Source: an uncultured Planctomycetales bacterium
GTDB lineage: Bacteria > Omnitrophota > Gorgyraeia > Aquiviventales > Aquiviventaceae
Length of the DNA: 64,000 nt
Reading direction: 5' to 3'
NCBI GenBank assembly: GCA_964373175.1
Contig: CAYJTP010000002.1
Span: 40,402 to 104,401, forward strand
In this document: piece after piece, positions 24,001 through 63,282 of the stretch
Numbering within the stretch: position 1 is the first letter of the stretch
Layout: every line of letters starts with the position of its first letter
The notes under the pieces: model-generated
The model's input: the letters and a program-made list of their open reading frames with translations, nothing else
Told to the model about the DNA's origin: nothing
Database searches by the model: none
Program-made: the position numbers and the translations under genes

Positions 24001-27000
24001 ACATCGAGCGGCTGATCGCGTTGGCTCCGCGAGACCGGGCGAACGTCCTGCGGCGGTACCAGCGCGTCATCGAGCTCAACCAACAGTCAAAGAAGATATC
24101 GCTGCGGGCTGGGAACGAGTTGCTGAAGCGCTTAGAGGCGATCACCTCGCGGACCGTCCGAGATGCCCTCATTGCAGAAGCGAAGGCCGCGAATGACCGG
24201 TCGAGTCGGCGTCCATCAGAAGCACTGTACCAGGATGGGGCGTTCGACGTGAAGCTCCTGGAACAACTCCTCCAGCAGGCTGCCCAACAGGCTGAAGGAG
24301 AACTTCGAACCGCCCACCAGGACAACACCATACATCTCGAGGCTAAGATCGGCGGCAGTACACGCTATCTCCACTCGGGCTCTCGAGGTGATATCGATGT
24401 CATGCTGCTCCATCAAGGATCCGTGACCCGTGAAGCGGCGACAGATGCCTTCCTCGCGGCATTCAAACCACTGGCGGAGGCGTTCAAGAATGTCTCGATT
24501 GATCGGCGTGGTCCAGCACGAAGCCCCGTCTTGATTGCCTCCTCTGCTGCTGGAACGCGTGAAGTCAACCTCGATCTCTACCCGATCACCTCGTGGGGGG
24601 AGGCGAGAGACTGGATCATCGAGTTCCTCCAGGAAGGCTTTAGCACCCTCGCCAGTCCCCACCGAGCGGTCGAGGATGCCGTGGCCGTGGCCTATTACCT
24701 TCGAGAAGATGCGTTGTACCGCAAGATGCTGGACCGGTTCCTGGCCATCCGCAGAGGGACCGCCTTCGAAGCCGAGGATCTCCACGCATTTCTGACTCAA
24801 TTCGCCGATGACCTGAAACGCTTCGGCATGCTCGTCTACCAGAACCCCGCTGCCTTAGATATCCTCGGCCGTCTGAACGAGTCTGCGGCGTTGACGGAGT
24901 CCGAATTGGCTAAGGAGCAGCAAGCTAAAGCGACCACGTCCAAGAGTCAAAAGCCAAGGAAGGGAAGCCCGTCAGGCTCGCCCCTATCGTGGGTAGGGAT
25001 CCTCCTCGGGCCGATTGGCCTGCTTGCGACTCTCGTCGTCTGGGGGGCGGCGCTCTTCCGCCCGCAGCTTCGGGCATCATGGCAAGCGTTGAAACGGCGG
25101 CGGCTGATTCACCGGACGTTTGGCGGGCTCATCGACACGATTGGCGTCATGCTCGATGAACTCGGAGAGGTGCCGACCGGGCATGAGGCACAGGCGGCCT
25201 TTATGCGCACGCTTCAACCAATCGTGGAGGCCTGGTATCAGGAGAACCGCAAGCGGATTGAGCAGTTGCAGCCGTTGTTGGTCCAACCGACCGGGCGCGA
25301 GGGGTACCACAGTAACCTGATCTACAAAGATCGCAAGGGGCGCTTCTTTATTCTGGGCCATCGCTTTGCCCCGAACGGTGGGGGAACCCCAATTCACTTC
25401 CGTGGCGATGCAGATCACGGCTACAAGTCGGGCATCCTGGTGACGCTCGATGAGGGAATTAAAGAGACGCGGTTTCGTGTTGAGTCCCGCAACGGCCCGT
25501 GGGTTCGCCTCACTCCTCTTGAGACTGCTACACTTCCTGCCGGCGGCATAAGCGTTTCGACCGAACAAATCGGTACCCCGCACATGGTGACGAATCGTAG
25601 AGACACGCCGGTCGGCGTCATTGGGCTCTACCTGGGCTTGTTCACTAAGGCTGAGCGGGCTACACCAAAAGCTGACGATCCGACCCTCTACTTTGTGCAA
25701 AAGGTGAATCCGAGCGAGCTGCGCTTTACCTGGAAAGACCTCGTCAAGGAGCAAGGCTGGGAAGCCCTGTATACCTTTGCGGCGCGCGAGGCCCTGAAGG
25801 ACGCCAAAGAGAAGAGCCAGATCGTCTACCACATCGATGGGACCGTCATGAATCCAGATGAAGTCTTGAGCATCGAGCCATTTAACCTGTCATCCGAGTC
25901 GATCATCTACCACGATCAACAGACCGGCCGCTTGCTCTTTTCGCCTCGCTCGCCTCCACCGAGCAGCGACAACCTTGCGCCACTGCCCACACCGACCCGC
26001 GACCTCCAGCAATCGGCCGAGGCCCAGCCTGAGCCGACCTCTTTTGTTTCGCCTGCTGAGCAAGCGCTTCCTCAAGAACCCCTCGTTCAAGCTCAAGGTC
26101 AGACCCTGCCAAGTGCGTTTCCCTTGACCTTCAAGTTCGGCATCATCAGCGACCTTATGTCAGGTGATCCTGCTAGGGCCATTGCTGCTGCTCGAAAAGC
26201 CTCTGAGCTCGGCTATCGGTATGGAATGCTGGAAGCGATTCGTAGCTTACCAGGACCGGTGGAACAGATTGTGGCTTTTATGATTTACTTCTTCGACGGC
26301 AACATCCTCGATGAGCAGTTTCCATCCACGTTTGGCATTACTGATCCAGCACGAGTAGCCACGGCCATCCAGTACCTTCAAGGTGAAGGCATCATCACCT
26401 CCAATGGACTTCGGTGGCGTTTCCATCCGATGCAAGCCCCATTACCAAAGGGCGTCTTTAGGTCGCTGAATGCCAGGCAACAATTCATGTTGAACGACCA
26501 GCGCTATCTTACGCTGAACAAGGACCGATTATCTCCAGTCCAGCGTCAGCGGCTGACGGACCACATCCAGTTCCGCCAAGGCGTGCTTGATCAAGTTGTG
26601 GCTCAAAGCCCGTTTGGTCAGTTATGCCTTAGTTGCATCCGCGCCCGGCCAACCGCGTACAGTTTGTTCCACTTACAACACTTTCAAGCAATTTGGAACC
26701 AAGTAGGCCAACGCCTCAATCCTGATGGACAATCCCTGGACCTCGCTGCCCAACTCAACCTCCTTGCGCAAGATCCTACCGGGGAGGGGCAGCGGCTTGT
26801 GCGTGAAGCGATCTTCGAACCACGCCATGCCACGTATCCAAGACGACTCGTCATTGAGGACTCCCAACTTGAGCGCCTCATGCGCCTCAAAGGTGAGGAT
26901 CCAACGCAGAGCGTGGTCTTGGATCAGGGAAGCAGCACCATGGTCACGTCACAGGAACTCCAACGTCGGCTTGGAGGGACTGTGATCGCGACGGACATTG

Positions 27001-30000
27001 CGAGCTTAGAGGAGATTCGATCCCGCCCAGGAGGTCTTTTGGTGCGCGTGGAGAATGAACCGCTTGATGAACAGGTGGTGCTAACCGACCGTTTGCAATT
27101 CCGCCAGGGGGACATGGCAAGGGACTTGTACACCGACCTAGCGGGTCGTGTGAACGTTATCCGGCATGCGAATGTATTGCATTATCTCAGCGAGGAGGCG
27201 TTCCAGCACACGATCGAAAACGTGTTTCGCTACGCTCAAGCTCGGCCCCAGGGACTGTTGTACCATGTCGGGAAAGCAGACATCAGTGATCCCGGCTTCC
27301 TTGATCAACTGATCTTTGATATCGGTGGGCAGTCGGCACGTGATTGGAGGTTAGTGTACGCTGGCTACCTCGGCTCAGGCTCAGCAAAGGAGCACAGCCC
27401 AGAATTTGCGCCAGAGCAGCTCATTGCCAAAGAGGAGGCCATTTCGAAACGGGTGCTCGCGATCCATCAAAAAGCCCTTGAACTTTCGGCGCATCTGCAT
27501 GGTGGGCAACTTGACGAGGCACTCGATCGCTTTGGCCGACTGCGCCAAGAGGCGCAAGACCAGCTCATGCAGTTCCTGTTTTCAGCGCATCCCCGAACCA
27601 TTTCTGAAGAGCTGACGCGTACAATCCTCCAGGACATCTTGCTGATCAGCCCATGGACACGGCATAGTGAATACACTGGCAGTTATTACCGTGATCAACG
27701 GGTCATGGTTCCACACGAGCTGGGGTGGCGGTTTGTGGAGTTACCACGAGACCTCAACGACCTCCTCGACGAACTTCTTCAGCTATTAACCACTCGTGCC
27801 TTTCAAACTCAGGGTCAGACCCCCGACAGTCACAGGACGGAACTGCAACACGCGCTCTTCAACGCCCTCACCGACATTGAGCTTAAGGCACAACCTGTCG
27901 AACCTCGCCAGGCTCCAGTCTATCGAGTGCCTGTTGGTAAGCTCAGCGTCCAACGGCTCCACGAAGCCGCAGCTTCGGTGCGCGCGCAGGTCACCGAAAA
28001 AGAACCGGTGGGGTTTGTTGAGCTACGGCCTGAGCACCTGGCCGACCTTGAGACAGCGCTGGCCAATTCTGACCTCACGCAGGCGCTTGAGGAACTTCGC
28101 GATGATCAACAGGTGAGGGTGCTGCTGGTTGCCAGCGCACAGGACCTTCACACTGACCCGCTTCACCGGTTGCACCGGCGCTTGGGTGAGCTGGGTATCC
28201 AGATTGCGCCCCCCATTGCTGACATCGAGCGGTTCGCGGATGACTGGCCGCCGGAGTGGACGCCGGAAGGACTTTCCCCTGAAGACTTGGCCGATGGCGA
28301 GGCGTACCACCGCGCGCTGTATCACGATGGGGATGTCAACCGACCAGTGAGCTGGCATGAGGAAGAAAGTCGCAAGCTCATCGAGCGGGCCTTCCGCTAC
28401 ATCAAGGATGGTGACGTCGTGGTGGACTACGGCACCGGAACTGGCGGCTCAGCCATCGAACTCCTCAAGGCGCTGGATGAGCGTGGGATCAGGGTTACGT
28501 TGGTCTGTGTGGATCCGCTGGCCTCGTGGTTTAGCAAGGCCTGGCAGTTACTCCACCATCGCGCCGATGTCCAGTTCTACTCCCTGTGGGATCCAACGAC
28601 GCGCAAGATGCGTCCACTCACTGAAATCCTGGGTTCCCACAAAGCCAACGTGATCGTCTCGGGCAGTACCTTCCACCTCATCCCCCAGAAAGCCTTTGGC
28701 CGAGCAATGCAAGACCTTGCGGATTCGCTGGTGGATGGCGGCGCGCTCCTTTGGAACAGCGGAGACATCGCCCTTGAGGGGGGCAAGCGTCCAGAGGACG
28801 CGGTACTCCTTCACGATCCCTATCGATCCATGCGGAAGGTGGCGATAGAACGGGTGAACACCGAGGGGGAATTCGCGACGCTGCGAGCCTCGCTCACGGA
28901 GGATGAACGCAAGGCCGCTGAAACGCGTGCCAATCGGATCTTTCCTCCGCAACCTCTGACAATCGATCAGATCCGGCAAGCCTTGACCGCAGCCGGGTTT
29001 GTCGACGGACGAATCACCCATGAACGGATCGAGGTGCTGGATGAGGATTCGGTTCAGTTCATCTCAACGGTCCCTCGGCTCCTGGACTTCCTTAGCGAGG
29101 TCCAAGATCCCAGTGTTCGTCAGGGGGTTATCAAGCACGTCATGCGCGAACAGGTGCTGCCCGAATTTCACAAGCAGCCAGCCGGCACCATCGAGGGGAT
29201 TCAGACATTCTGGACGTTCGGGGAGTTCATCAAGCCCGTTCTTGCGCCAACCAAACCTGAAACCGGTTCACCCGATCGGTTTGCCAAGGGGCAACCGGTA
29301 CCAAGTACCGAGGGGTCAGGTTCCGCCGCGCCGCCAACTGAGACAGCCACCATCGACTGGACCAATTCTCCGGTGCTCACTCAGCAGGAGCTGGCTGACC
29401 GCCTGAATGAGCCGGTCCACAACGTCCTGAACCTGCCAGGCTTCGCAGGCACGTTCAGGGTGGGAGACTTGTTGGTTCGTTCCCCGCAGGAGCGGGAGGG
29501 TTTTGAGATTGTTCAGCTCGCCAGCGGCAAACTCGTGCTGCGCTACAACCAGACGATCGTCGGGGGCAAGGCGGCTGAGCCGTCCGACATCGACGCGTTG
29601 TGGGAGGCACTTCGGGCCAAGGATCATAAGCGGACGCAGGCACTCATCAAGCAGCTTCACAAGCAACCGGAGACCTGGGTGTGGAAGGTGCACAAGCGCA
29701 CGGTGACCAAGATATCCGAGCGCATTGGCAAGCTGGGCCAGGAGCTTGGTCTTGACGAGCAGCACGCCGATGCGTTGGTTGTGACTGCTTCAGAGCTTAT
29801 GAATAACATCGCGCGTCACGCTGAGAAAGGGGTCGTGGTACTGCGTAAGGTCACGGTTGACGGGAGGGTGGGTGTTGAGGTGTTGGCGCTCGACCGAGGC
29901 CGAGGATTGCCTGAAGCGAGGAAGTTGGAAATTCTCAAAGGGAGGTTGCCGCTTGATTGGCAACGTCAAACAGGTCGAGGGTACGCGATCATCACGAATT

Positions 30001-33000
30001 ACAAGAACGTCCAGCACCTCATCGACGACTTGCAGGTCGACTCTCGGCCAGGCGAAGGTGTGAAGGTCACTCTCCGAACCCGGCTGCCTGTTGACACCAC
30101 AAGCAGGGCAGAACAGCAGTTCTCCGAATATCCACTGCAGGGAGGCGCCACCCTGCGGACGCGTCTTGCCGTGGAAGAGGTGAAACGCTTGCGCACCGGG
30201 CACGTGGTGGTCGCCGATGCCGCGAATCAGTTGAGGCTGGTGATTGAGTTGCCTAGCCTGCTTGGGAGCGTGGGGACATCCCTCGCACTCGCCAATGAGC
30301 TCCTTGGGACAGATCTTGTTCAAGAGATCGCTGACCGAGCAGCCAGGGATCCCAATCGAATCGTGACGGTTGTGGACTGGGGTTGTGGCAATGGGAGTAC
30401 GTTGAGGGAGCTTGCCACAGCCCTGCACCAACGCGGGATCACCAACGTCAGGCTGGTGGGATTTGCCAATATGTACTTTGATGAGTGGCAGGAGGCCCCC
30501 TCGAACGTCACATTCGTGCTCGATACGGCTGATCATCTTCTCAACTATTTCTCAGAGGGAGAAGTCGATCTGATCTACAGTCTCAGTGGACTGAAATACT
30601 TAGCCTGGCGAGCCTATCTCAAGCATCTGAAACAGCTTCGCTCCAGCCTCCAGCCAGACGGTGTCATCCTCGATGCTCCTAGGAGGCTCATGCTCTTCTA
30701 TCAATTCGGCCTTCCCATGTTCAAGGTGAGTAAGGTTGGTGTTGGTCGTCTTGGTGCTCGACTGACTCCAAAACCCACCTCTGTCTTCAAGGAAGGCGTG
30801 TTCAGTGATGGCCCACTGTCAAATCCTCCGCTGCGGAGATCTTTTGAGGGCACCTATTCCAGACCGGATCAGCCGCTGACCTTCGGCGCAGACTTCGGGT
30901 TTGGCCAGTTTGTTGAGCGCCTCAGGGACTTGTGGCGGCGGCTCATGCCGCGGCTGGCCAGGCGAACGACCCCAACCCAGCTGACGTGGCAGGCCCTGCA
31001 GCCGTTTGAGCGGATCTTGCTGGTCGATGATCGAGCGATGGTCTTGGCTTCGCTGTTGGCGTTCCTCAGAGCGCGCATGCCGACTGCCTCGTTTGACGTG
31101 GCCCGCGACCGGATGGAAGCGATCGCAACACTCACCGCTTCTCAACAAGCTGGCACACCCTTCGACCTGGTGGTCACGGACTTGAAGATGGGAGACGATC
31201 TGCTCACGATGCCTGTTGAACAGAAGCAGGGCGGCAAGCTCATCGCAGACATCCGGAGGAGCGCGTCGCTCGGTCGTCAGCCACGCATCGTCGTCTTGGC
31301 GGCTGGTGCGGCGAGCGAGGCGACGACGTTGCAACGCCTTGGAGCCGATGCGGTCGTGGATAAGCTTAGCGATGGATTCCTGGATCAGCTGTGGGAAACG
31401 ATCACCCACCTGCCCGATGAGGCCCTGGCGCGGGACACGGAGGAATGGCTGCGTCAGCATGCGACGGACAAACGCATCGACCCAGAACTCATCCGGCTGC
31501 AACGGGAGTTCCTGGAGCGCCTTCGCATCTTGCGAGAAATCAACAAGGAGAGGCAGCAGCCTGGAAGCGGCAACATCCACAAGATCGCCCTCGTGAGCAA
31601 ATTGCAAGGCCAGGCGAAGAAAGGGGCTGCGCTGTTGAGAATGGCCCAGCACGAGGGGATCGACTTCATGTACGCGCTTGGCGATGTGATTGGTCGTGGC
31701 GAGAAAGCCCACCTGCTGTTACGGACGATCCGGGCCTGGATGCAGCAACACAGGCCTCCTCACCTCGAGCTCCTCATCGGGGCGAATGAAGCGAAATTCA
31801 TGGCAGCGATGATGGGCCATCCGAAGTTTTCATCCCGCTTCCTCGACCCCATCGGGGGCGGACGAGCCCTGCTTAAAGAGGTGGGGGCCACGGAAGAGAC
31901 CTTCCGGTTCAATCGACAGCTCGTGGAGGATCTTCGCTTCATCCAAGACCATTTCCTGCTCTTTGACTATGACCTCGTGCATGGGGTGGGCATGGGATTT
32001 AGCTATCCGATCAATGACGACGGTCAACTGGCCGTGAACTTCTTCGGAGAAACAGGACCGCAAGCCCTGGCGAAGATCGAGGCGAGTATCCGGGCTTCGA
32101 GCAGTCTCAAAGGGTCTGTCCTGAACCACCTGCTGGCACTCCTGTTTGCCTTGGAAGAGAAACAGGCCGCTTCGCTGCCGGTGAAAGCCAAGGAACTGAT
32201 CGACGGGAAGCACACGACGATCGACGAGCTGCTTGAACACTTCAAAGTGCTCGGTCAAGGACATGAGCTGCTGCGATTTGTCCTGACAGAACCGAAAGAA
32301 GGAACACATCTTGCGCTCTTTGGGGATCGGGTCATCGGCATCATGGATGGAGCAGCTCATGAAGCGGACAGCGTCTTAGTGCTGGGGGGCGAAGGGATCC
32401 GTTGGTGGACGTGGAACGCCAAGCACGGGCGGTACGACCCGGGCAACGAGGTGCTTGAGGGCGCGACCTACCTCAACCAATTGGAAGGCCTGCACAAGGG
32501 CTGGATTGAGACCCATCGAACAGAAATCGCGTGGCGAAAGGAAGCCGCTGAGCTAGCTCAGAGCTCGGGGTGGGTCGATGAGCTGATCCGAAGGGTCAGG
32601 GACTTCCTCTCAGACCGCCTGCGCGCCTTCCGCTATGACCGGCGCAGCGACTACTATGTGAGCCGATTCATGAACCGGATGTATCAGGAAGGCTGGTACA
32701 TCGGGCGGGATGGCATCCTGCAACAAGGCATATCCAAGCATGAGCCGTCTGAGGCGTACCGGCAGCTCTTCAAAGCCGCGGAAATCCAAGCCCTTCATGG
32801 GAATATCATCCTGAATCGCAAGACGGGTGAGGCCGCCTTCCTCTTTGCGGATGAGAAAACAAATCCAGGACAACCGGATCTGTCCTATGTGACCTATCTG
32901 CTCCTGAAGAAGAACCCCGACCTCGTCTTGGTGGCTGATGACATCGCCCGGGCGTTTACACTGGGAGGGAAACTCTACGGAGGAACGCTGCCCTTAGTGC

Positions 33001-36000
33001 ATATCGGACAGGACCTGGTGGCGCTCGACTACAAGGATGACACAGGATTGCTGGTCGAACCGATGCTGGATGGCAAGCCGATTGTCCCGCAAGAAGGATT
33101 TGTCCCGATGACGAAAGTCATTTGGCTGAACTATGGCCGTGAGCCAGCCATGTCTCGCCAAGACATCATCCGGCGCATCTTGCGATCCCAAAAAGACCGG
33201 CACCATGTGTTAAGTCGTCGCTTCCTCAGAGGAGCCGTGGGACTGGAGGTTGAAGAGGTTCGGGTACCGCAATACAAGGTGTTTGAAAATGCCGCGAAAA
33301 TCGTGGCTAGAGATCTCCAAGGACTCTTTGATGAACACCACCCCCACCCGTTCTTGGGTCTTCGGCGGTGGGCGAAGATCGTAGCGCGGATCTTCAACCA
33401 GCCCCAGCCGTACCAGAAGTGGGAAGCCAAGGTCCTGAGGGAGAAGACCGCAACGCACATCCCGTTGATCCAGTTCCTTCGATCCTGGCTGAAAGTCGTC
33501 TTGTGGGTCGGCGTGGGCCCCTTTGCGAGTGTCACGCTCGCTATGCTCACCGGGATGGGAGGACGGGATGCAAAGCAGCCAGAGCCGCCGACCCAGCCGA
33601 GACGCCTCCTTGTGGTTGATGACAATGCCGCTGTGTTGGAGAAGGTCAAAGCCGCGCTGACGGCCCAAGGCTACGAGGTGGAGACGGCGCAAGGGGGCGA
33701 TGATGCACTTGCGCTCTACCAAGAGGCTCGAGACGCCGGCTGGCCGTTTGCCGCGGTCGTGACGGATCTGGCGATGCCGCCGCAGATGGATGGGATTCAG
33801 TTGCTCTCGGCGCTTCGACGACTCGATCCGACGTTGCCCATTGTGTTGCAGACATCAGAGACGACTGACGTCATTTTCCAGAAGCTCAAAGTGACAGATG
33901 GGGCGGACAGCGCAGACCAAACCAAGGGCCTCATCATTATGAAGAAGGCGGATGAGCATCTTGACAAGCTCGTGGGATTGCTGGCTCAGCTCCTCGGACC
34001 GACGACACTCCAAAATCCGCAGCCTTCCGCTGGCCAGGTATCTAGGTCTGTAGTTGATCAGTATTTGTCAGCAGAGGAACTTCAGCGATTCCAGGCGATC
34101 CGGGAGCTTCGGGAACGCAACCGAGGTGCGCTGTTCCACAAGGTCTTTGGACAACCCGATGCGCCGCCTGTGGCGTGGGGCGATCTCTCGCCAGAAGACG
34201 AGGTGCGCTTTGCGATCTGGGACTCAAGGATCTTGGATTCCCACAAACGGATGCATCGCGAAGAGCGCCAAGCCCTCATCGACATCTTGGCGAAGCGCGG
34301 GAACCTTTCTGACCATCTGCTGACCCTGTTGGACTCACAGTCCCGGCAAGTGAGCCGGCGTGCTCTCTTGGCGTTGATGGATCCCACCTTGCCAGTCAGC
34401 CGTAAGCGAAGGCTGATCCAGGCGCTGGAGCGCTTGTTCCATCGCTATGAGTCCTCTCCGCTTGAGCCGTTCTTCATCATCAAGGCGATGGAAGGTCAGG
34501 GGGCGGTGGGAGCGCTCAAGCGGATTGTCAAGGAGAGTCCTTCATGGCGAGCGGATGCGCAAGCGGCCCTCGAGCACATTCGCGCCTGGGAACAACCCCG
34601 TCGATTGGATGGCCGATTTGACAAGAAGCCGGGCGGAGACTGGCAACATGTGCTCACCGCCATGCTGTGGCACCCCGATCTGCTGGTGTCGGCTGAGACG
34701 GGCAAGCTGACGATTGCGAAATACCGAGCAGTGGACAGCACCGTGGAGGAATCCACAACCCGGAGAGATTTTGCCGACCTGGTACGGCTTGGCTACCTCA
34801 TCCCCGATGCTTCGACCAAGCCCTACACCTATCGCCTGGATTTTGTGCGGCTCCAAGACTATGACCCTGAAGCCCGGCAACGAGCCCAGACCATTCAGCT
34901 TGAGAAAGACATAGTCTCAATGCTGGTTGACGCGCTGACTGACCAGCTTGAGCAGCCCCTCGGCAATCTGGAGGGTCGCGTGCTCCTCGTTGGATCCCGG
35001 TACAGTCATGCCCAGCTTGCCGAACTCGCCCGGACGTTCCACAACGCCACTGTGGTTGGGATCGGGCAGCATCAGGGGCGGCTGGACATGATCAAGAAAA
35101 TCCTCAAGGCGTGGTATCCAGACCTCTGGCCTCGGATTGACCTGCGGCACGCCCCTGCCCACGATCTCCACGGCGTGATTCCGGATCGGTCGATGAAGCT
35201 GGTGATCGTGCCGACGGCGCGTGAACTCTTCGACGAGGCTGGCAACCCGCCAAGGCTGCGGCGCCTGCTGTCCGAGGCGGTCCGGGTGCTTGAGCCAAAC
35301 GGGGTTCTCCTGGCCGGATTGGGGCACCTGAGTCTCTCGCGGCAGATCCTGACAGACGAACTGGGGATGGAGGACCTTGATTCGGCCCGGCACCATCCCC
35401 TGGTGCTGCTCTTCAGGAAACCCGCTGCGAACACAACCACATCAGGTGCGCACACAGGATTTGTCCGCCGCGTGATTCTGCTTGTTGTGGTGGCCCTCAT
35501 GGTCCTCGTCGGCGCGCCAAAGGCCTTCACGCAGACTCTGGTCCTGGATCGGACAGAGCAGATCGCCCAGGGTCAGACCCCTAGGGCAATCACCAAATTG
35601 CAAGTTCCAAATAAGTTCCAAGCTCCAATCACCAATCACCAAACGCGGGACACGGTTTCAGAGACCACCACGCCCGCGGCTCAAGACACCGCGATCGTCA
35701 ACGAACTGGTACGGCGCGGGTTCACCGAAGATGAAGCGAAGATGGTGATTGAGGAGCAGCGGCTTCTTGTGCAACGCGTAGCCCCGCATCTGTCTGAGGA
35801 AGAACTCCAACAACTCCATTGGCACACCTATCCGAAGAGCGCGGGGACGCTGCTTCAGCGGTCACTCAGGACAGTGATTGAGTTGGGTGTCCTGGCTGGG
35901 CTGTGGGTCTGGTATCTTGTCTGGTCGTGGAGATCCATCAAGCGAGACCGAGGGAAGTCGCTACCCCCAGGGCTCATTTTTGGAATCGGCCTGTTGATGC

Positions 36001-39000
36001 TCACCTCAACAATGATAGATCCAGTGACCAAGCCAGGTGGGTTTTCCGACACCTTGAACAAGCGCATCTTTGTCACAAGCGGTTGGGCTTCTTCGAAGCT
36101 CTTCCGGGCCTTAGCGACTCATGAGACAGCCCACCAGCTCTATCCTGTGGTCCTCACTGGGATCAACCACGATGTCATCTTCGCATTGGGGAACCTGCGG
36201 CTCTTTGAACTTGGCGCACGGGAGCTCGCAGGCTCACCCTTCTTGCCGACGAAAGGTGCGTCCGCTACGAGAGCCTGGGAACTGGGTCAGCAGACGAACA
36301 ATCCTGGCAACGCCTGGCTCTACCTGCGCCTGATCGCGGAAGGCAAGACGCCTGAGGAGGCCGAGGCGATCGTGCGCTCAGGTCGGCCGTCTTCGCAGGG
36401 TATTCAGGGTTCGGCAGCGCAAGCTCAGGGTCAGACCCCCAGCACAAAATTTGGCGATTTTCCCGCACAGGGTCTGACCCCAAGCCTCCCTCAAGCGAAG
36501 CCGAGGAAGCTGACGGAGGCCGATAGTTTGTTCATCGATGCGGAGGCGTGGGTGAATGGCATCCACACGTTCAAGGTCGCGGGTGCTTACCTGCAGGCGG
36601 CAGCGCGTGCATCCCTGCGCGGCTTTCTCCTCAATATCAGAGAAGCTGTGGCAGATCAAATGGCCATTGACACGAGCTTGAGCCAAGTCTATTCCGACGT
36701 GGCCAAGGACGTTGAAGAAGCCCTCGACACAACTGAGCAGTGGGTCAATGCCCCACGAACCGTTCGAGCCATCCGTGCGTGGGTGAAGGAACTCCGTACG
36801 CTTGCTGACCAACCTGACATGGCAGGACCTGTTCCGGATAGCCTCAAAGTCCAGTTGCTTGAACAACTTCAGGGGCAGCTCCGCAGACTTGCAGATCAGG
36901 TTCCGATTCGGCCGTTGCCGAAAGCGCTGCGACCCCTCCGGCCTGAACGACCTAATCCAGACCCGTGGTGGCTTGATGCGCCAGAGCTGAAGCAACCAGA
37001 GCGCCCCGAGGAATTCAAACATCGCCAACCGCAGCCGGATTCAAGCCGCCAGGTTGAGCCGAATCGCAAAGACTCTGGCCGTGATCTCCTCCTGCCGTTG
37101 TTCCTGGGTCTTGGCCTTATGTGGATGGGAGTAAGAGGAAAACACTCATACCCAGGCGACGAAGTGATCAAAGAGTGGATCACGCGATATCAGGCCAACG
37201 CCTCTGCGATCGCTAAGGGTGAGAAGAAACATCGGACCACAATCAGGCGCTGGATCAAGCGTTTTATCCAGAGCGACCCAGCGCAACGTGAGCAACGTCA
37301 ACAATGGGTTGACGCACTTCGAGAACAAAGGGATGATCCAAGGGATAAGTACCCTGGTGATGTTCAGATGAAGGAACTGATCCAGACGTACCAGGCTAAC
37401 ACCTATGCTCTTGCCAAAGCCAAGCACGTCAGTCAGTCCACTGCGTCTGAGTGGATCAACCGTTATATTCGGGGAGAGCCTAGCCAAAGCGGCAAGCGTC
37501 TTGCTTGGGTCAATACGCTTCGGAGACAAAGAGGCGCCCTATACGACCTGTACCCAGGCGATCGTAAGATGGAAAACTTACTCCGCACATACCGGGCGAA
37601 CAGCCGCTTTCTCGCTGAGGTTCTGAATGTCAGTCCCACCACTGTTTGGAGATGGATCAGGCGGTATGTTCAGGCCGATCCTCGCCAACGCGACAAGCGT
37701 TCTACCTGGGTCGAGGCGCTTCGAAGACAAAGGCGTCACGAGCAGAGGGATGAGTACCCTGGCAATCGTGAGATGGAAACATTGATCCGCACACACCAGG
37801 CTAATAGCGCTGCGATTGCTAGGGCTGTGCACGTCCATCGCACCACTGTTTGGAGATGGATCAAGCGTTTTATCCAGAGCGACCCAGCCCGACAGGAAGA
37901 ACGTCAGCAGTGGGTCGAGACACTTCGAAGACAAGTGAGTTACCCAGGTGACTCGAAGTTTGAGCGGTGGGTTTACGAATACGAGGCAAACGGGTTGGCT
38001 ATTGCCAAAGCCACCAGGGCTCATCCTGCAACCATTCACGGTTGGCTCAAGCGGTATATCCAAAGCGACCCGGAACATCGCGCAGCGCTGGTGGACCGTG
38101 TCAGAGCTCTTCGGCCAATCCTTCGCAGATGGAGGCGGTGGTTTACACGCAACTATCAAGGGCTCGGAGAGGAAGCCTACTACCAGCGCACGATCCCCGC
38201 GCTGATCCAACATTGGGGAGAAGACGCTAAACGGCTAGACCAAGCGTTAGGAGTCATTCTCACGAAGGGCCTTGAGGCTCCCCACAACCAGATCGATGGC
38301 TACTTTGCTGAACCCATCCCCGCGCTTCTTGAGGCTCACGCAAAGCAAGACCTCTCAACATTCGAGCGCGGTGTGGATGACGCTGTTGCTAAGCTGCGCG
38401 CAAACCGGACCACAATAAAACGCACGGCACATCTTCAACCAGTCACCCGTCGCGGATCCGGCACCCTCTTTTTTGAGGCGGGCAGCGCGGTGCTGGTGGG
38501 CTCGACGGCGATCGCACTGCTTGCGCTGGTGGTGCCGAATTGGGTTGTCCTTGCTCTTCTTGGCGTGTTCGGGGTGGCGGCTGCGCTCTATACAAAGTGG
38601 GTGATCTGGTTGGCGAAACAAGGGTTCGGACTCTTCACCAACGAGCAGCGTCTTGGCCGTGTGGATTATCCAAGGATTGTGGGCGCTGCTGCTGTCATCA
38701 CGATGGTGACGGCTGGGACACTCAGCATGCCGACGGCTGTGGCGGTTGTGTGGATGGTGCTGCTCTTGAGTGTGCTGTCAGCCCTTTCAGCACATACACT
38801 CCGCAATCTAGTAGAGACAGTCCTGGAAGACCATCTCCCCACCGTTGAGTGGGAATCGCTATCACGGAAGTGGAAACACGACGAGCAGACTATTGATACC
38901 ATTTCCTACGCTGGAAGTTTGATTGGACTGTTCGGCGGGGCTTATCTTTACTCCTCCTTCTTCTTCTTGTGGCTTTTCTATATGATGAGTGGCTTCTATG

Positions 39001-42000
39001 CAGCCAAGGCAGTCTCCAGTGTTATCCTCACGCGGTCCTTCCTTCGTGAGGCGGCGCAACGGTATGGCATGCCTCAGGGTGTCTTCTGGAAATCGATGTT
39101 GACATTCAGCCGCAACAAGGAGGTCGGTCTTCCGACTCTGCAGAAACCGGCTTCGCAAAAACTTCTGCCCCCCCACAATGACGGATCCGGCACCCTCTTT
39201 TTTGAGGCGGGCAGCGCGGTGCTGGTCGGTGGGGCTGCGATCGCGGTGCTGATGCTGTCATTGGGGCAACTGTTTGGCCTGACGGTGTTGGCCGGCTTGA
39301 TGGCGTTAGTCGCTTATCTTAGCAGTCTCACGGTGCATCAACGATACTTCGAGGGCCAATCCGAAGATCATCATCACCTGTGGCAGAACTTCTTGGTCAA
39401 CCGACGTTGGTTTGCGGGTGGGATGAGCCTCGTCTCAGCTAATCTGCCTGTGTTTGTGCTCCGGCAATTTGATGCGCCAGTGGAGTGGCTCAATATGTTG
39501 CCCTATGGGCTCGCGGGGATCTTCGTTGGCTACATGCTGTTTAGTCTGCTCCTGATCCCGCTTGTCCAAAGAGCCAAGCAGCTTGGGTTGACCGAGCGGT
39601 TTGCGGTGACGCTGCAAGATAAGCGCGGGATGCATGTCTTTCCGAACATCAAGATCTCTCAGCTTGTTAATCGCATGCTTCAAGAAACCCCATCCCTTGA
39701 GCGCATCGAGGTCGGCTTTGTGGGGTATCAAAAGACGCTTCGTGTTACGCGAGATGCCCCGTTGAAAGAAAATGACCTGACCATCTTGGCAAGCGAACTC
39801 CCCCAGGATACCCCGCAGAATGTCGTGCGATTCACCGTGGTGGGACACAGTCGTCGTAATCTTGAGCGTGTGAAGCGCCTTATCAAAGGTGGCTTCCAGC
39901 ACATCAACGAGCTGAGCCAGCCAAAGCCCTCTCCTGAAGTCCTCGATCCTGAGCGAACCTGGCAGCAACTCGTGGCGCAAGTGGAACACCTCACCCCAGC
40001 GCAGCGGCCTCAATTCATCGACACGCTCTACCAGGAGCTCATCCTGAATCGGCCCAGACACGCTGTGTCGTCCAAGACCCTTGCACTGGCGCGTCGCAAC
40101 GATACGCTCTTGAAGCGACTGCGAGAGACCGACAACCCTGCGCTTTGGACCGTGTACCAAGGCCTCGAGGACCGTTACGTCGAGCGCGTGAGGGCGTTTT
40201 TCACGCAACGGGTGCGGCCGCTGTCAGCGCAGCTTGATGCGTGGCGCGATTGGCCATCTGGGCCTGTGGCACGGCCGATGAAGGACTCGACCGATCCTGA
40301 GGTTCAAGAGATGTATGGGCGGTTGGTTGAGCTCTTCAAGGGTATTCACGAGACGAGCGTCATCCCACTTGACTTGCATCTGGAGCTGGCCAGGCAGGGA
40401 CTCCTCGGCCCTCAATATCCGCAGGAGTTTGGAGGACTGGGATTGTCAGAGCATGCCTGGGTGCGGCTGGCCGCCGAGAGCGCCAGACACAGCTCCGGGG
40501 TGACGGTCTCGCAGATCAACGTGAACACCGGGATTGTGCTTGACATTCTGAAGGATCAACCCGAGGAGATCAAGCGACAGCGGATGCCTCGCATCTTGAG
40601 AGGGAAAGTCTTCGGGGCGTTCCTCCTGAGTGAGAAAGACGCCGGCTCTCACAACGCCAATCTCAAGAGCCACGCCGAAGACGGCAAGGCGACTGGCGAC
40701 AACGTCTTCATCACCAACGGCATTGTGCTGCCGCCGAATTTCAAAGAGCTCTTGGAACTTGAGGAGGAGATTCTCCGCAAGGAACGAGAGGTCTGGCGTG
40801 GTGAGAAACCGGAGCTTGCCGAGTTGAAGGCGTACCTCGGACAAGTCCGCCGGACGTTTGGGGTCTATCGGGCCATGGAACATCTCGGGATCAAAGCGGC
40901 TTGGACGGTGCCGCGTGGGACGCAGCCTGCAGACGAAGGCATTTCTGCCCTGCTCATCATCCTGAAGGAGCCAGGCACGGTTCCCATCCGCCCAGGTGGA
41001 GGGGGCGACCACCTGCAGCTTGCAGAAGGCGTATTGGTGAAGGGTGAGGATACCGTTGGGCAGAAGGGCTCAGGGACAGCCAGCATGTTCTTCAAGGACG
41101 TTCCGGTCCGAACCGTGATCGGACGATTGGGTGAGTTCCTGAAGGCTCTCCAGAGCGGCCGAGGGACCGTGGGCGCCCACGCGCTTGGGCTCTCCGAAGA
41201 TGTGGAGGGTCTGCTCCGAGAAGCGATAGAGGCTGTCCGCACAGGCAAGCAGCAGGGCGTTGAACCGGATGTCCTGGCACAAGCCGAAGCGTTGTTGGAC
41301 GAGCTGCATTGGCAAAACCGTCTGATGCGGCGCTTCATTGAGGAGACGGCCCTGGCGAAGGACCACGGGGAGAATGTTGTGGTTCGGGCGGCATTGGCCA
41401 AGCTGTTTGCCTCGGAGATGGCTACACGGGCCGCAAGCGAGGCCTACCAGATGGCGCACAGTCTGAACGCCGATTCAGCGCTCATCAACCGACTGGACAT
41501 GCGCTTTCGCGATGCGAAGGTGATGGAGATCTACGAGGGCACGAATGAGATTCAACGGCTCTTCGTCATCACGCCATCGCTCTTGGAGAACACAGACCAG
41601 CAATATCAACACATCCTGGCCATGCTGCGGGAAGACCAGAAGCCAATCACATTCTTCCCGAAGGCACTCAAGGGACTCATCCATCTGCGCAACCAACTCC
41701 TCGACGCCTTTCGCCAAGATCTCCAGCATATCCTTCCTACCTGGGTCATGGCGCGCAGCCCTGAGGACACCGCCCCGACAGTGACGGTGAAGCAACTTGC
41801 GCCCTTTGTGTTGCCCGATGTCGAGATGCGCCTCCTGACACTCGTTGAGGCGTACCATGCCTACCGGGCTGCTACGAAAGACGAGGTTCCGCTCTGGGAA
41901 CGTCACCTCCGCTACCTCATCGAAGAGTTTCTCGGTTTCTTCGGAACAACATTCGCGAACCTTCCGCATGACGCGCAAACGCAACTTGAGGACAAGCTCC

Positions 42001-45000
42001 AAGCGGTGAAAGACACCATCCGGACTTGGCATGTCCAAGAGATCGCCCGATTGATCACGGCGTTCGATGAACCCAAGCGGCCGATGGTGCTGGTGATCGG
42101 TGGAGACGAGCTGTTGACCAGCCGATCAATCGCTGAGCACAAGCCACTGGTGATGCACCAACCAGTCCTTCAGCAGGTCATCCAACGGATGAAGAAAGGC
42201 GATACCATCCTGGTGGGCGGCTACGCGGCCAGCGGCTTCCAGACGGCGCTCGATCTTGGTACGCCGCAGTCCGATGAGTCGGTGGACGAATTCCTGGTGC
42301 GCAAAGAGCGCGAGCTTGCCCCTGGGTTTACTACAAGCGACCTCGGCAAGCTCAACCAGGCTCAATTTGAAGAGGCGAAGGTCGCCTATCGGTTGCTTGA
42401 TCTCGCCCGGCAGCGAGGGGTCGAGGTACGGGTGGCGCAGATCAGCTACACCGAACCAGGGACAGGGCGCTTCAAGTATCATCCGGACCTGCTGGTGGAC
42501 GATCAAGAGCGCTTCATTCACAAGCTCCGGCATGCAAAGACCATCCTCTGGATCGGCCAAGCATTGGGTCTCACAGAGACCGCGACCACGACTGAGATCA
42601 AGCGCATCGCAATGGAACAGGTTGAGAAACGACAGACCGCCATCTACGTCAACGAGAATCCTGACCACCTCGAGGCGGCCCTGCACTTCCTGAACAGCGG
42701 CGGGTCGTTGCCTGAACGCTACCAGGCCCTTGAGCCAGAGGTGCTCAAACTCCTCCGCGGAGAGCCTGCTCAAACCAGAGAAGCGCCTGACACTTCAAAG
42801 ATAGCTCAACTGGCGGTGCTTGGACAGGTTCCAGCCGTTGATCATGCCAGTCGGGATACCTCACAACTAGCGGAATGGGTGCGCAAACATCGAGTTGGCC
42901 GTGTGACCATCAACCCGAACTGGGTTCGAGACGCCATTGTCAGTGGGTCCTACGACGACCTGATCCAGGATGGTCTTGCCAAGGACTATTCGGCACAACA
43001 GATCTACCGGGAAATCGTGGCTAATCTCGTGACTCGTACAGCTAATGTCCTCAGAGAACAGCATAAGGAAAGTCAGGGCCGGGATGGCATGGTGAGCATC
43101 CAGGTGAGCCCTGAAGCCTATCGTTCGGCTGAAGAGATCCTTGAAGAAGCACGGTGGATTTATGAACACACGCCAGAAAATGTGGACATCAAAATCCCTG
43201 CGACCCCCGAAGGCCTCAAGGCCATTGAGCAGGCTGTGGCTGAAGGCATTCGGGTGAATGTGACAAATCTGTTTCCAGATGTGACCTATGACACTGACCG
43301 TGATAAATTCCACGCCGAACAGTATGAGGCTGTGGTTGAAGCGTACCTGAAAGGGTTGGAGCGGTACGTTGAGCGCGTCCGGAGCCAGATGGCTCCTAAG
43401 CAGTTGCAAAGGCATCTTAGCCGGTTAGGTTCAGTCATCAGTATTTGGCTTCGCATGATTGACGACCTTGCGGATTCTCATCTTCCCGTCGAGTGGCGTG
43501 GAAAATTGAGCATCGCACAGGCGAAGGTGCTCTATGAACTTCATGAACGGCTCTTTCAGTCGGAGCGATTTCAACGCCTGGCGGTCCTCGGCGCAAGACC
43601 ACCCCGTCTCTTATGGGCCAATACCCGTGTCAAACCCGAGGTTCATTTTGTCCGATGGCACGGCCAAACTGGCTTTGATGAAACCCGAGAGTACTTCCAC
43701 TACATCGAACCACTCATCGGTCCAGACACGTTATCGACCATGCTTCCTGACACCCTTGAGCGCTACGCTCTCAACGGAGATCCGCAACCGCGGCTACGGC
43801 TTGGGGTAAATGAGGCAAAGCGCGCTGTCAAGGCCATTGCGCAACTCCTAGAGCGTGCAGGGACGAGTGCGCGAGAGATCCATGAGCGTGCAGTGCAAGA
43901 GAGCTTGGTAGCCTTTGGACATGCCGCGCAGCAATCTGTTGAGTATATTCAGCTCTATGAGTTAAGGCCAGCCATCAAAGATGTGATACTCGCGATTGAT
44001 CATCGGCTCAGTGACCAGGGTGGATTGGTGGCGATTGATGGGCCGTCTGCGGGCAGGAAAAACACGTTGGCGAAAGGGGTAGAAGGTCAGTATGAGAAAA
44101 CCCATCCTGGCCGCAGGATCGTTGTGCTAGACCTCGATGAATTGTATGTGTCGCGAGAGCGAAGACAAGCCATTATCAAACGGCTCATAGGAGACCAACT
44201 GACAGAAGCGGAGGAACAGCTGCTCACGGAGCACGACCGTGCGACGATGGAGCCAGGCAAAGACTACCTGCACGAAGAAGAGGTCGTTTGGAAGAACGAT
44301 ACGATCCTCGAGGTGTTGCAGCGGATTCACGCCTTTCTCAAGGCGGGCCATCCAGAAAACGCGGAGCTTTCTTTCAACATTGATGCGTACGATCACAGCA
44401 TTCGACAAACTCACCCGAAGCCTTACACGATCAAACGCGGGGACATCGTGTTGGTCATAGGGAAGTTCGCCAGCCGCGAGCCGCTTGCCCAGTTGTATGA
44501 TCTCAAGGTTCGAGTGCTTGATCATCTCAAGAGCGCCAGGCAGCGCTATGAAGCTCGAGAACGGCAACGGAGAACGTCCGAGGAAGCCGATCGCCTGATG
44601 AAGTTTTACGACTCAGCCCTTGTGCCGAGCTGGGAAGCCTACGACACACGGACCCGGAACCTCATTGACCTCGTTGTTGATCTCGGTAACGCCACAACCG
44701 CCTGGAAAGGCCCGACCAGTCCTCGAGCGCCTCCTGGAGCCCAGTCTTTCGCGAGCCTCTTGAGTGTCCTCGCAAACCCGCTCGTCTTTCTCACCACCTC
44801 ACTGGCGCTGGTCGTGGCGGCATGCACAAAGCCGACGGTGAAAGACTCCCTGGCGAGCCGAGCGCCTCTGGTCCTGACGGCTAGCGACTCTGCTCGCATC
44901 GCGCAGTTGATTGGGCAGTCCCGCGCCACCTATCTGTCTAGAGATTTCAAGGCCGCCTTGAAATTGTTCGAGCAATTGCAATTGCTCGCGCCGAATTTTG

Positions 45001-48000
45001 ACATGTACTACAACACGGGCCTGACCAGATTTCTGCTCGGCCAGCTTGAGCAGGACTCAGGTCGAGCCAAGCCCGCCCACGAGTACTACGAACGCTCCAT
45101 CGCGGATTTTGACACCTCGATTGCCCTCAAGCCAACCTTGGAAGCGTATTACCATCGGGGCCTGGCGTTCTACAACGTGCAGCAGGAAGAGAACGCCATT
45201 GAGGATTTCAAGCAGGCCCTGGCCTTTGAGGAGGCCTCCAGGCTTCCTCCGGGATCGCAGGCAGAGCTCCTGCGTGCCTTAAGCGCCGCGTACGTGGCTC
45301 ATCGCGACTACCAGGCGGCCCTCCTCTACAGCCACCAGTCGCTTGCCCTCAAGCCAACGTTGGAGGGTTATTACTACCGAGGGCTGGCGTTCTACGGTCT
45401 TGGCCAAGAAAGCGATGCACGGGCTGACGAGGCTGTCGATTCGGTTGAGCAAGACGCGGCGTTGCAGGAGGCCTATCAGTCTTATCTGGATGCTGCCGTG
45501 GATCTTGAGGAGGCGCTGGCCTCGGAGGAATTCTCGTTGTTAAGCCCGCGCACGCAAGCTGAGCTGCATCGAGCCCTTGGCGCGACCTCTTTTGCGCTTG
45601 CCGAGTATGGTGAGGCGATCAAGCAGTATGACGAAGCGCTTCGTCTTGATCCTGACAACGCTGAGCTGTACATCAGACGTGCTGAGAGTTATGCCCTTTC
45701 CGGATCGACGTGGTTTGCCATCCAGGATTTCAAGGAAGCGATTAAGCGAGGCGCAGAGCAAGCGGTCAAGGCCTCCCTCGCTAAACTCCGCAGGCTCGGG
45801 ATCGAGATTATCATCCCGATGATCCTCGCGCCGGTGGTCGGCCTCCTCGCCTGGGCGGCGCACCTGTTTGGGCTTGGTGGCGCGGAGCAGACGGCAGGGT
45901 TTGTGCTCAGCATGGCGATACCGATGAGCGTGCCAATCGCGAACGCGATTCGCGCAAGGTGGATCGATGTGCTTCCCGATCATGTGCGTTTTGGCAAGGG
46001 ACCGATTATTGACCAAGCCATTCGCGCGGCGTTCGCTCATGCGATCCAAAATCCTGAGCAAGATGCCGAAGGCGCCATTGTTGACACTGCACAAGCGCTC
46101 GCGGAGGACTTATTACCACCAGGCGCACAGGACAGCTACACCGCGCTCATCCAGCGCGCGCAACACCTGACAAGCGATCCAAGGAAGCTCGTGGTTCTCC
46201 TGCGACAGCCGCTTCTTGAGGCACAAGAGCTTAAGCTCCAGTTCACAAATGGCCGCGATCAGTCCATGCGCTTTTTTTATCGCTTTGATCTCAAAGAGCT
46301 AATTGGACAGCGGAGGAATGGAGATCGGCATCCCCAGAAGAAGCCGATGGGACCAGCAGCCACGGCCAAAGCGGAGCAAATCGCCGTCGCGCTCTGGGAA
46401 CTTCGCGATGAGGTCAAAGCTGGTTTGCTGGATTTTCCACGGTTTAGAAAGTACTTGGTCGTGCATGAACTGCGCAAACGCAAAGGCCAGCAGTTTCTCT
46501 CTCCTTGGACATTAAGTGTTTATCCCCGGCACTCCCAAGCCGTCCAAGAGGCCTTACGAGAGCTGAAGCGTGCGATCGAGGAGCGCCAGGAGCAAAAACG
46601 CCAAGCGGGGCAACTCGTCTACGACTACGTCCACGCGGAGCGGGCTGCCAAAGTGATTGATGAACAGCTCACGCAACTTGAGCAACAACTCGATCGTGGA
46701 GAAAAGCCACGCTACAAAGTCTCAGAGGAAACATTCTCCGGACACATCGATCTCTCCCGCCAAACGCTGGCCAAGCACCTCACGTGGAATCCGGTGTTTC
46801 GTACAAGGTTTGAGTCTTTGCAAGAGAAGACAAAGGATTTCCGCGATTACCTCTCGAAGGTCCTTCAGCGTCTCGCTTCGGAATATCCCGGCCGCTGGTG
46901 GACAGTCAAGAAAATCCGCCAACACGCCCAGATGACTGAGGTCGCTCACGATAAGACGTATCATGATTTGGAGCAGCTTGCCAAAGATCCGTCCTCAGGT
47001 GTGAAAAAGGAACCCAGAGCGAGCCGCAGTCCCTATAAACCCAATCGCTATCGCTTCGTCTCTCAAGGCACAGTCGTCCTTGCGATCCTCCTGCCGCTCC
47101 TCGGCGGCCTGGCCTATCCTCTGCACCTGATTGCGGGGGCAGGCGATGCGTTGCTCAGTGCGGTGTTGCTTGGTGGATTTGCTGGTTTTCTCGGTGTGAC
47201 TGTCTCACTCAAGCAACTGTCGGCGATTTTGCGAGACACCCTGAGAGAAGGATCAGACAAGCTCGTCACCCTCTACTGGTTAGCGAAAACTGAACTGGCC
47301 CTGGGCCATCTCGAGGAAGCCTATACCCGGTCCGCCTCCGGATTGGCCCAGGCCGTTGTCGCCCAGCAAACACTCAAGCTCACTGGTCGGGAACGCGAGG
47401 GTGAGCTGGCAGAGCTGGACAGACAGATCGCTGATCTGGTCGATCTCCACGCCAAGGTCCTCTTGAAACGAAGACACCACGACGATGTGGATCGCGCGAT
47501 CGCCATCTTATCCCAGGCGGTGAAGGACCACCCCGAGGCCTTCTTCCTCCGGATCACCCTCGCGAAGGCCTACGAAACCAAGACCAACACCCCAGGTCTC
47601 CACGAGAGCGACCGCCGCTTTGCCTTGAAGCAAGCGGAGGCGACAATCCGCAAGGCCGTTAAGGACCTCTCGACGTCCCCACAGTATTCCAGGATCGCTG
47701 AATCTTACGCGAACCTCCCCGCCTGGCAGGACCGAATTGATGAGGCGATTCACGTGCTGAGTGCCGGTGGGCGCCATGTGAAACGGCAGTTTCGAGGAAA
47801 TCGGTTGATCCAGCAATTGTTCTCTCACCTCGTCAGGCTTCGGGATGGCACACGGCGTTCGGGTAAGGCCGAGACAATCCTCAAGCTTGCCGTCGGATTC
47901 CTCAGCCTCAGACTCCTTGATTTGACCGTGCAAGCCCTCAGCCACGGTGCCTCTAAGAACATGGTATCTGATACCATTTCCCAGGCGACTCTCTTCAGGC

Positions 48001-63065: not shown

Positions 63066-63114
63066 AGACATGAGGCACAGGAGACCAGACACAACAAATG
63101 GGTAGTAAAAAGAG

Positions 63115-63167
63115 GGGTCAGACCCTGTGCGGGAATTTTGTCAGTTTTCGTGCGAAGGGTCTGACCC
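63115..63167. terminator. Palindromic hairpin element (copy 2) 50 nt after the giant-ORF stop. It is a possible terminator or REP-like element, but it has no U-tract.
   Basis: The arms gggtcagaccc (63115-63125) and gggtctgaccc (63157-63167) form 11 Watson-Crick base pairs, plus one more pair t26:a56. The loop is 29-31 nt. The stem is the same as in the in-ORF element at 36428-36480, and the loops are related (about 68% identity) in inverted orientation. The downstream sequence gagcacgctcac is not T-rich. Confidence 0.4.
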
Positions 63168-63253
63168 TGAGCACGCTCACGGCAGGGGAACAGGGAAAGA
63201 GGGGACTGTCAAGAGTCTTCCAGGGCTCTCTTAGTACAAGATAAAAAAAGCAC

Positions 63254-63282
63254 TTGACAAGCTTTTTGAAAGATATTATTAT
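63254..63282 (+). promoter_or_regulatory. Sigma70-like promoter (TTGACA - 17 nt - TATTAT) in an AT-rich intergenic island, with an upstream A-tract
   Basis: In gcacTTGACAagctttttgaaagatatTATTATatgg the -35 hexamer is at 63254-63259 and the -10 is at 63277-63282. The A-run aaaaaaag at 63243-63250 is UP-element-like. The downstream gene starts at 63361. Confidence 0.5.

Follow-up and report, generated by a model that had tools for sequence, protein, structure and literature searches.

The locus described here raises the question of why one short palindrome should occur twice around a single gene, once translated in frame within a giant open reading frame (ORF) and once as a hairpin just past its stop codon. 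The window, meaning the whole 64,000-nt stretch that was analyzed (positions 40,402 to 104,401 of contig CAYJTP010000002.1, numbered here from its first base), is assigned to a Candidatus Omnitrophota genome and is occupied by a single ORF with many transmembrane segments, which runs from base 3 to base 63065 and has its 5′ end beyond the window edge. An earlier note on this DNA had proposed either a mobile palindrome of the REP (repetitive extragenic palindromic) or MITE (miniature inverted-repeat transposable element) kind that is tolerated in frame, or a structural site reused as a 3′ hairpin. Our analysis indicates that the element is probably a repeat of the REP/REPIN type (REPIN, REP doublet forming a hairpin), that is, a small, non-autonomous, hairpin-forming repeat built on the 13-nt palindromic core GGGGTC(A/T)GACCCC.

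A full copy of the element is 59 nt long and comprises a 17-mer, a 25-nt spacer and a second 17-mer (Table 1). In copy 1, the arms GGGTCAGACCC (36428-36438) and GGGTCTGACCC (36470-36480) form an 11-bp perfect stem around a 31-nt loop, and the in-frame translation is AQGQTPSTKFGDFPAQGLTPSL; both the coordinates and the sequence given in the earlier note were accurate. Identical arms are present, as had been claimed, at 63115-63125 and 63157-63167 in copy 2, the first of them beginning 49 nt past the stop codon at 63063-63065. Copy 1 on the plus strand and copy 2 on the minus strand are homologous, and the homology runs past the arms, with GCTCA shared at one flank and C at the other. The loop of copy 1 and the reverse-complemented loop of copy 2 are identical at 21 of 31 positions (68%), including the shared stretch TTCCCGCACA that had been pointed out previously. 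This similarity is significant, as none of 200,000 shuffles was as high (p<5e-6), and only two of the 127,938 31-mers of the window were, namely the loop itself and that of copy 2. Outside the 17-mers, 15 of the 25 spacer positions are identical (counted by eye from the alignment of the copies). What has been kept between the copies is the outer arms, an inner-left segment TGTGCGGGAA and an inner-right segment TTTT(C)GTGC, while the apical 9-10 nt differ.

The arms double as direct repeats of the 17-mer GC(T/A)CAGGGTC(A/T)GACCCC, placed 42 nt (14 codons) apart. In the window, GGGTCAGACCC at no more than one mismatch gave 14 strand matches against 1.7 expected, and the 17-mer GCTCAGGGTCAGACCCC at no more than three mismatches gave nine against 0.3 expected. 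The half-sites listed in the earlier note, CAGGGTCAGACCCC at 27810 and 35568 and CAAGGTCAGACCCT at 26093, are located and translated (QGQTP, QGQTP and QGQTL) just as it had them, and the sites at 26093/26096, 27810 and 35568 have a common left flank, (G/A)C(T/C)CA; each of them is a solo 17-mer. None of the three solo sites resembles the element outside the 17-mer. As the similarity ends with the 17-mer, they were ruled out as degraded full copies. A further one-mismatch arm match at 23694-23704, GGGTCATACCC, lacks the flanking motif and is probably due to chance. The homology of the flanks and the 17-mer direct repeats, along with the strand-asymmetric fold described below, are additions to what the earlier note contained.

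Table 1. Coordinates of the repeat units and of the surrounding features in the window
Feature	Position	Strand	Remarks
Giant ORF	3..63065	+	Open from window start; at least 21,014 aa; stop codon 63063-63065
Solo 17-mer (REP singlet) GCTCAAGGTCAGACCCT	26091..26107	+	Two mismatches; in frame AQGQTL
Solo 17-mer ACTCAGGGTCAGACCCC	27807..27823	+	One mismatch; in frame TQGQTP
Solo 17-mer GCCCAGGGTCAGACCCC	35565..35581	+	One mismatch; in frame AQGQTP; 13 aa past a transmembrane helix, 79 nt (26 aa) before module A
Module A (aa 11881-12121)	35661..36383	+	Transmembrane segment and HExxH domain; ends ...EEAEAIVRSG
Linker joining module A to module B	36384..36506	+	About 41 aa; contains copy 1
Copy 1 (REPIN-like doublet)	36423..36481	+	17-mer GCTCAGGGTCAGACCCC at 36423-36439, 25-nt spacer, 17-mer GCACAGGGTCTGACCCC at 36465-36481; in-frame translation AQGQTPSTKFGDFPAQGLTP
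Module B (aa 12163-12300)	36507..36920	+	Homologous to P0009 and P0010
Two in-frame Shine-Dalgarno-like sites with start codons	36515..36554	+	GGAGG-N8-TTG (start 36528) and GGAGG-N5-GTG (start 36552); 34-72 nt past copy 1, at the start of module B
Copy 2, opposite orientation	63114..63172	-	Begins 48 nt past the giant-ORF stop; 82 nt upstream of the next promoter-like site
Sigma-70-like promoter, TTGACA-17-TATTAT	63254..63282	+	Precedes the next gene

One way to account for these matches would be chance resemblance, or a peptide motif (AQGQTP) that is repeated in the protein without any underlying DNA element, and the fact that all five in-ORF units lie in one codon phase counts in favor of such an explanation. 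The tetrapeptide QGQT occurs four times in the giant ORF, where 0.24 occurrences were expected, and in four of four cases the codons are GGT-CAG-ACC, a coincidence of about 3e-6 by codon usage, given that GGT makes up 18% of the Gly codons and ACC 39% of the Thr codons. In no case does QGQT appear in the ORF without the nucleotide motif, which answers a check suggested in the earlier note. Since the codons are identical and one copy lies outside the ORF, a peptide-level explanation is excluded. With motif counts far above those of shuffled sequence and a loop identity at p<5e-6, chance resemblance fares no better, and we consider both versions effectively refuted. The recurrence resides in the DNA and not in the peptide.

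The properties of the translated element bear on how it is carried within a coding sequence. Four of the six frames are open across copy 1. When the element is oriented as in the ORF, both phase 0 and phase 2 are open and free of cysteine, in contrast to the opposite orientation, in which every phase contains a stop codon or cysteines; the giant protein has nine Cys in 21,014 residues. This pattern of cysteines and stops may be the reason that all in-ORF units have a single orientation. Copy 1 lies in a linker, and we propose that it would be tolerated, and would persist, because its reading frame is open, because it encodes no cysteine in the orientation and phase concerned, and because it is situated in a flexible linker of about 40 aa between folded modules.

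Folding of the RNA, a check suggested in the earlier note, gave hairpins at both sites, with z-scores of -4.0 to -6.1. The plus (mRNA) strand of copy 2 forms a hairpin of 24 pairs at -35 to -38 kcal/mol (z -5.1; -35.2 in the comparison of strands), compared to -25.9 kcal/mol for the other strand; copy 1 folds at -29.3 kcal/mol in sense and at -40 to -45 kcal/mol in antisense (-40.2 for the G/T-rich strand). Folding is therefore better by approximately 10 kcal/mol on the G/T-rich strand (sense in copy 2, antisense in copy 1), owing to G.U pairs in the inner stem. Copy 2 is not followed by a T-run, the downstream sequence being TGAGCACGCTCA, and the terminator scan made no call there. A search of Rfam returned no match in the window and no relevant match in 18 motif-bearing loci. 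An intrinsic (Rho-independent) terminator was rejected on the lack of a U-tract, despite the presence of a hairpin. On the giant mRNA, the copy 2 hairpin of about -35 kcal/mol would most likely block 3′ exonucleases and/or aid the end of transcription. The second option of the earlier note, a structural site reused as a 3′ hairpin, may hold for copy 2. As REPs commonly act as 3′ hairpins, this option and the REP option are not mutually exclusive.

The same structural data could be taken to mean that the 17-mers are functional sites and not mobile ones. They might be operators for a dimeric DNA-binding protein (GGGTC-N-GACCC, with pairs 42 bp or four helical turns apart), or RNA hairpins selected in place, with copy 2 as a terminator or stabilizer and copy 1 serving the 63-kb mRNA as a pause or processing site inside the gene. 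Both copies have a spacing of exactly 42 bp, their stems are retained despite differences in the apical loop, G.U pairs improve the folding of one strand, and copy 2 is located between a stop codon and the next promoter. Operators, however, would not need a spacer that is homologous between the copies (15/25), the orientation of copy 1 puts its weaker fold on the mRNA, neither a U-tract nor an Rfam family was found, and elsewhere the core behaves as a genomic repeat flanking transposase genes. On balance, we regard functional, non-mobile sites as improbable, though less so than chance.

This last point rests on a scan of one genome per species with the pattern arm-N25-35-arm, which found at least 120 loci. 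The matches span many phyla, and none among the matches listed has the loop of copies 1 and 2. In these listed loci the arms are almost always the self-palindromic 13-mer GGGGTC(A/T)GACCCC. Among the same matches, G-C accounts for 110 of the 136 pairs directly outside the 11-mer, where C-G never occurs, and 98 of the inner pairs are C-G; such an asymmetry of the outer pair is not produced by hairpin pairing alone. The 13-mer core was found in clusters in many of the listed loci, including those of low-GC Bacillaceae.

The hallmark of a REP-RAYT system is that its RAYT (REP-associated tyrosine transposase) gene has its own repeats at its flanks (PMC5581495; PMC3733652). A tblastn search with the Y1 transposase of an Omnitrophota relative (L133) detected RAYT-like ORFs in six of the 120 loci listed (L025, L053, L059, L062, L073 and L109, from Marinobacter, Opitutae, Halomonas, Bacteroidales, a gammaproteobacterium and Acidobacteriota), and for all six the best NCBIfam match was NF047646, REP-associated tyrosine transposase, with E-values of 1e-9 to 1e-21. 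If RAYTs occur about once per genome, six such loci are far above expectation (0.2 in 0.9 Mb by a rough estimate). Units of GGGGTC(A/T)GACCCC are present on both sides of five of these six genes, and on the downstream side only in Opitutae (L053). These units also lack GTAG. No description of GGGGTC(A/T)GACCCC as a REP core was found in the literature that could be searched, nor any bacterial match for the motif.

Hairpins of this type also exist in the phylum of the host. Two other Omnitrophota metagenome-assembled genomes (MAGs) contain two to three each, placed where only a short gap separates a stop codon from the start that follows, with a within-genome similarity of the loops like that of copies 1 and 2; one of these MAGs has 31-nt loops and a conserved box beside one arm. 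In an Omnitrophota MAG (L133, GCA_964364715.1; 16650-17547, 25482-25510 and 9833-9869), a Y1_Tnp gene resides beside giant genes and has at its flanks, in inverted orientation, copies of a different REP, ACCCACCCCGGAGATGTCCCCGGGGTGGG; more copies of this REP are found in intergenic positions and close to where a giant gene ends. RAYT-REP systems thus occur beside giant genes in Omnitrophota, and we count this in support of the REP reading.

A metagenome contig scan with CCCGCACAGGGTCTGACCC yielded one chance match with no second arm, a scan of viral contigs for the element gave none, and a blastn search of plasmids had no match. In a contig classed as viral (L126, IMG/VR; 108-707 and 1554-1602), a hairpin used as a control, GGGACAGTCCC, is located about 850 nt from a RAYT-like ORF, which suggests that other G3/C3 palindromic hairpins may be REPs too.

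Taken as a REP/REPIN-type repeat, a full copy consists of two inverted 13-nt units, 42 nt from start to start, that pair into an outer stem of 11-13 bp, with the inner stem retained between copies and the apical loop variable. The repeat would have been spread by a RAYT, an HUH/Y1 transposase acting on single-stranded hairpins, that is presumably encoded elsewhere in the host genome. The solo 17-mers would be REP singlets, either independent units or remnants left by a 42-nt (14-codon) deletion between the arms; as the arms are direct repeats at 10 of 11 positions, slippage between them would remove exactly 42 nt and leave an in-frame singlet. Copy 2 is in the normal place of a REP, just past a stop codon and ahead of the promoter of the next gene. 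Precedents for such positions exist: REPs have been documented both past the ends of ORFs and within genes, in flexible linkers, and Rickettsia palindromic elements (RPEs) are documented in frame, intragenic REPs being a minority situation (PMC3733652).

Several observations weigh against this assignment. No RAYT gene is present within the window, and the only RAYT seen in Omnitrophota (L133) has a different REP. The window holds two full copies and three singlets in 64 kb, a number that leaves dispersal or a high copy number in the host genome unproven. The canonical GTAG/CGTC REP head is absent, the conserved flank here being GCTCA/TGAGC. All six NF047646 matches score below the NCBIfam curated cut-off, and the six RAYT-like proteins are mutually 20-43% identical, forming no clade peculiar to the core; a RAYT clade specific to GGGGTC(A/T)GACCCC was rejected on these pairwise identities. 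In viral contigs, the target stem was found at four loci and the control stems at 0, 0, 3 and 0, so the bare stem alone is not exceptional. In addition, a full HMMER search, which reached distant Omnitrophota homologues, returned none with the junction between modules A and B, and thus no empty site that could prove an insertion. The REP assignment is backed by comparative evidence and is unproven for the host genome itself. Of the two mobile types named in the earlier note, the REP/REPIN type is upheld by the RAYT-flanking core in six lineages and by the Omnitrophota hairpins, and the MITE type is not, as the element is below the typical MITE size and shows no consistent target-site duplication.

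The surroundings of copy 1 introduce a different route by which a REP could have entered the coding sequence. Copy 1 may be a fossil of an intergenic REP. It would once have lain a few tens of nucleotides past the stop codon of a gene that ended in module A, much as copy 2 lies today; with this stop lost, the gene would have been fused in frame to the next one, and the former spacer, with its REP, ribosome-binding site and start codon, would now be the translated linker. Here the element is still a REP, and what differs is its way into coding sequence, which would imply growth of the giant gene through read-through fusions. Two related Omnitrophota proteins have module A as their natural C-terminus, namely P0014 (L133), which ends ...EEAERIVRG-TAA, and P0007 (L135), which ends 19 aa past the equivalent IVRSS. 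Relative to the aligned stop position, copy 1 begins after 40 nt, similar to the 48 nt between the real stop and copy 2. The Shine-Dalgarno-like sites with start codons past copy 1 (Table 1) could be fossil or still active internal initiation signals; they are two of only 13 in-frame GGAGG-N4-10-start sites in the 63-kb ORF, and the Poisson probability of two or more within 150 nt is about 5e-4 to 1e-3, a post hoc and weak figure. Other Omnitrophota carry the same type of hairpin in the order stop, hairpin, ribosome-binding site, start. The linker is also rich in the Gln codons CAG and CAA, each one transition from TAG or TAA, and the four in-ORF sites fall within 10.3 kb of the 63-kb ORF (p = 0.015).

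Other data speak against this history. P0003, a third homologue, has module A in an internal position. None of the three solo sites is followed by a Shine-Dalgarno-plus-start signal, and across the ORF such in-frame sites are not enriched (13, versus 18.8 in codon shuffles). No promoter-like site lies near copy 1, and among the homologues found no relative has separate genes at the junction of modules A and B. We therefore view a fossil origin of copy 1 as a possible but rather doubtful account. A broader version can also be framed. In it, the in-frame REP units would all be fossils of former gene boundaries, and the ORF, at least from 26 to 36.5 kb, would have grown by stop loss and read-through of REP-bearing spacers, or, in a variant, through REP-flanked coding cassettes moved by a RAYT: module A lies between the singlet at 35565 and the doublet at 36423, and a segment of 572 aa lies between the singlets at 26091 and 27807. 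This extension is unlikely in our estimation, and if anything slightly more speculative than the fossil origin of copy 1.

The giant ORF itself fits the giant genes known from Omnitrophota (bioRxiv 10.1101/2023.11.21.568195 and 10.64898/2026.06.07.730766), two papers that make no mention of palindromes or hairpins. Pfam searches identified a wide range of domains in it, including CofD, cytidylate kinase, NAGPA, ROK and HAD domains, several methyltransferases and response-regulator receivers, five helix-turn-helix modules, TPR repeats, acyl-CoA dehydrogenase, transaldolase, a GT4 glycosyltransferase and an alpha/beta hydrolase. The full HMMER search, conducted with aa 11940-12499, yielded 13 distant matches, and of the eight that were looked up every named one was Candidatus Omnitrophota; a word-indexed protein search with the same segment had no match. 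The five helix-turn-helix modules, of about 65 aa each, stand in tandem at approximately 37130-38150 of the window (aa ~12371-12710) with the pattern YPGD...WI.R(F/Y)I..., and also occur in the Omnitrophota giant proteins of L132 and L134. At 58751-58882, a GC-rich in-frame block of 120 nt (40 codons) lies between perfect 12-nt direct repeats, GAGACCAGAGAC, and holds a perfect 33-nt repeat (spacing 40 nt) together with inverted arms of 34 nt. Its appearance is that of another small repeat inserted into a linker, or of a duplication that arose there by slippage.

Downstream of the giant ORF, the next gene starts with the ATG at 63361 and encodes a product with a signal peptide. It has one relative, at 57% identity, on a 1-kb contig (L129) from which the element is absent. 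Upstream of this relative (L129, 200-290) there is a canonical terminator, with hairpin and T-run, and a TTGACA promoter; copy 2 holds the equivalent place without the T-run.

Taken alone, the finding is that of a small repeat in an unusual place, and it indicates that REP-type elements occur in Omnitrophota and are carried, translated, inside giant genes. How genes of at least 60 kb originate is an open question, and it is this question that the former-boundary proposal addresses: if it is true, gene fusions would have left datable scars, in the form of translated REPs at module junctions, and these could be searched for in the many newly completed Omnitrophota genomes. The presence of GGGGTC(A/T)GACCCC beside divergent RAYTs, from Proteobacteria to Bacteroidales and Acidobacteriota, bears on substrate recognition by RAYTs and on the age of REP-RAYT partnerships; if this holds, the motif would be a REP core shared and conserved by at least six phyla or classes whose RAYTs are very divergent. 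In our view, the fusion-scar proposal and the cross-phylum REP core are the parts worth following.

Finally, the element can be set beside known systems. An integron attC site, an imperfect palindrome whose ends carry the boxes R″ (RYYYAAC) and R′ (GTTRRRY), was rejected, as no AAC...GTT boxes were found in either copy or on either strand, and a reading as Tn3 inverted repeats was rejected on the defining features of those repeats. Bacterial MITEs (Correia/NEMIS, Nezha and RUP) resemble the element in having terminal inverted repeats, in being noncoding, in forming hairpins in transcripts and in sometimes being located at gene 3′ ends; the element, in contrast, falls below their usual 70-300 bp and has no known parent insertion sequence. 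The MITE assignment was rejected as no target-site duplication is common to both copies: the CAAGC repeat around copy 1, with its members 61 nt apart and thus out of frame, is part of an extended palindrome and is missing at copy 2. Rho-independent terminators and 3′ stabilizing hairpins share with copy 2 a strong GC-rich hairpin 48 nt past a stop codon and before the next promoter, and the terminators differ from it by their U-tract.

For the translated copy, the closest precedent is offered by the RPEs, reportedly described by Ogata et al. in 2000, which are said to be palindromic repeats inserted in frame in protein-coding genes. As with copy 1, a palindromic repeat is translated in frame as a short extra peptide of a presumably functional protein, and noncoding copies exist as well. 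RPEs are, however, 100-150 bp long, restricted to Rickettsia, unrelated in sequence and CGTC-tagged, whereas the element is 59 nt long with one full copy in coding sequence; copy 1 therefore resembles an RPE in its in-frame position, and the differences in size, sequence and host argue against membership. RPEs are themselves mentioned among in-frame palindromic repeats in the REP literature (PMC3733652).

The most extensive resemblance is to the REP/REPIN-RAYT systems (Nunvar 2010, PMC2817692; Bertels & Rainey 2011, PMC3116915; Di Nocera 2013, PMC3733652). The element differs from them in lacking the GTAG/CGTC head, in having a unit palindrome of only 13 nt with a single central base, and in having no RAYT within the 64-kb window. 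In common with them, it is a short GC-rich palindrome arranged as inverted hairpin doublets and as singlets, represented here by two doublets with outer stems of 11-13 bp and an inner stem, and by three singlets. Copy 2 occupies the typical place just past a stop codon, with copy 1 and the singlets being intragenic, and the 13-mer core of the element flanks RAYT-like genes in six other lineages.

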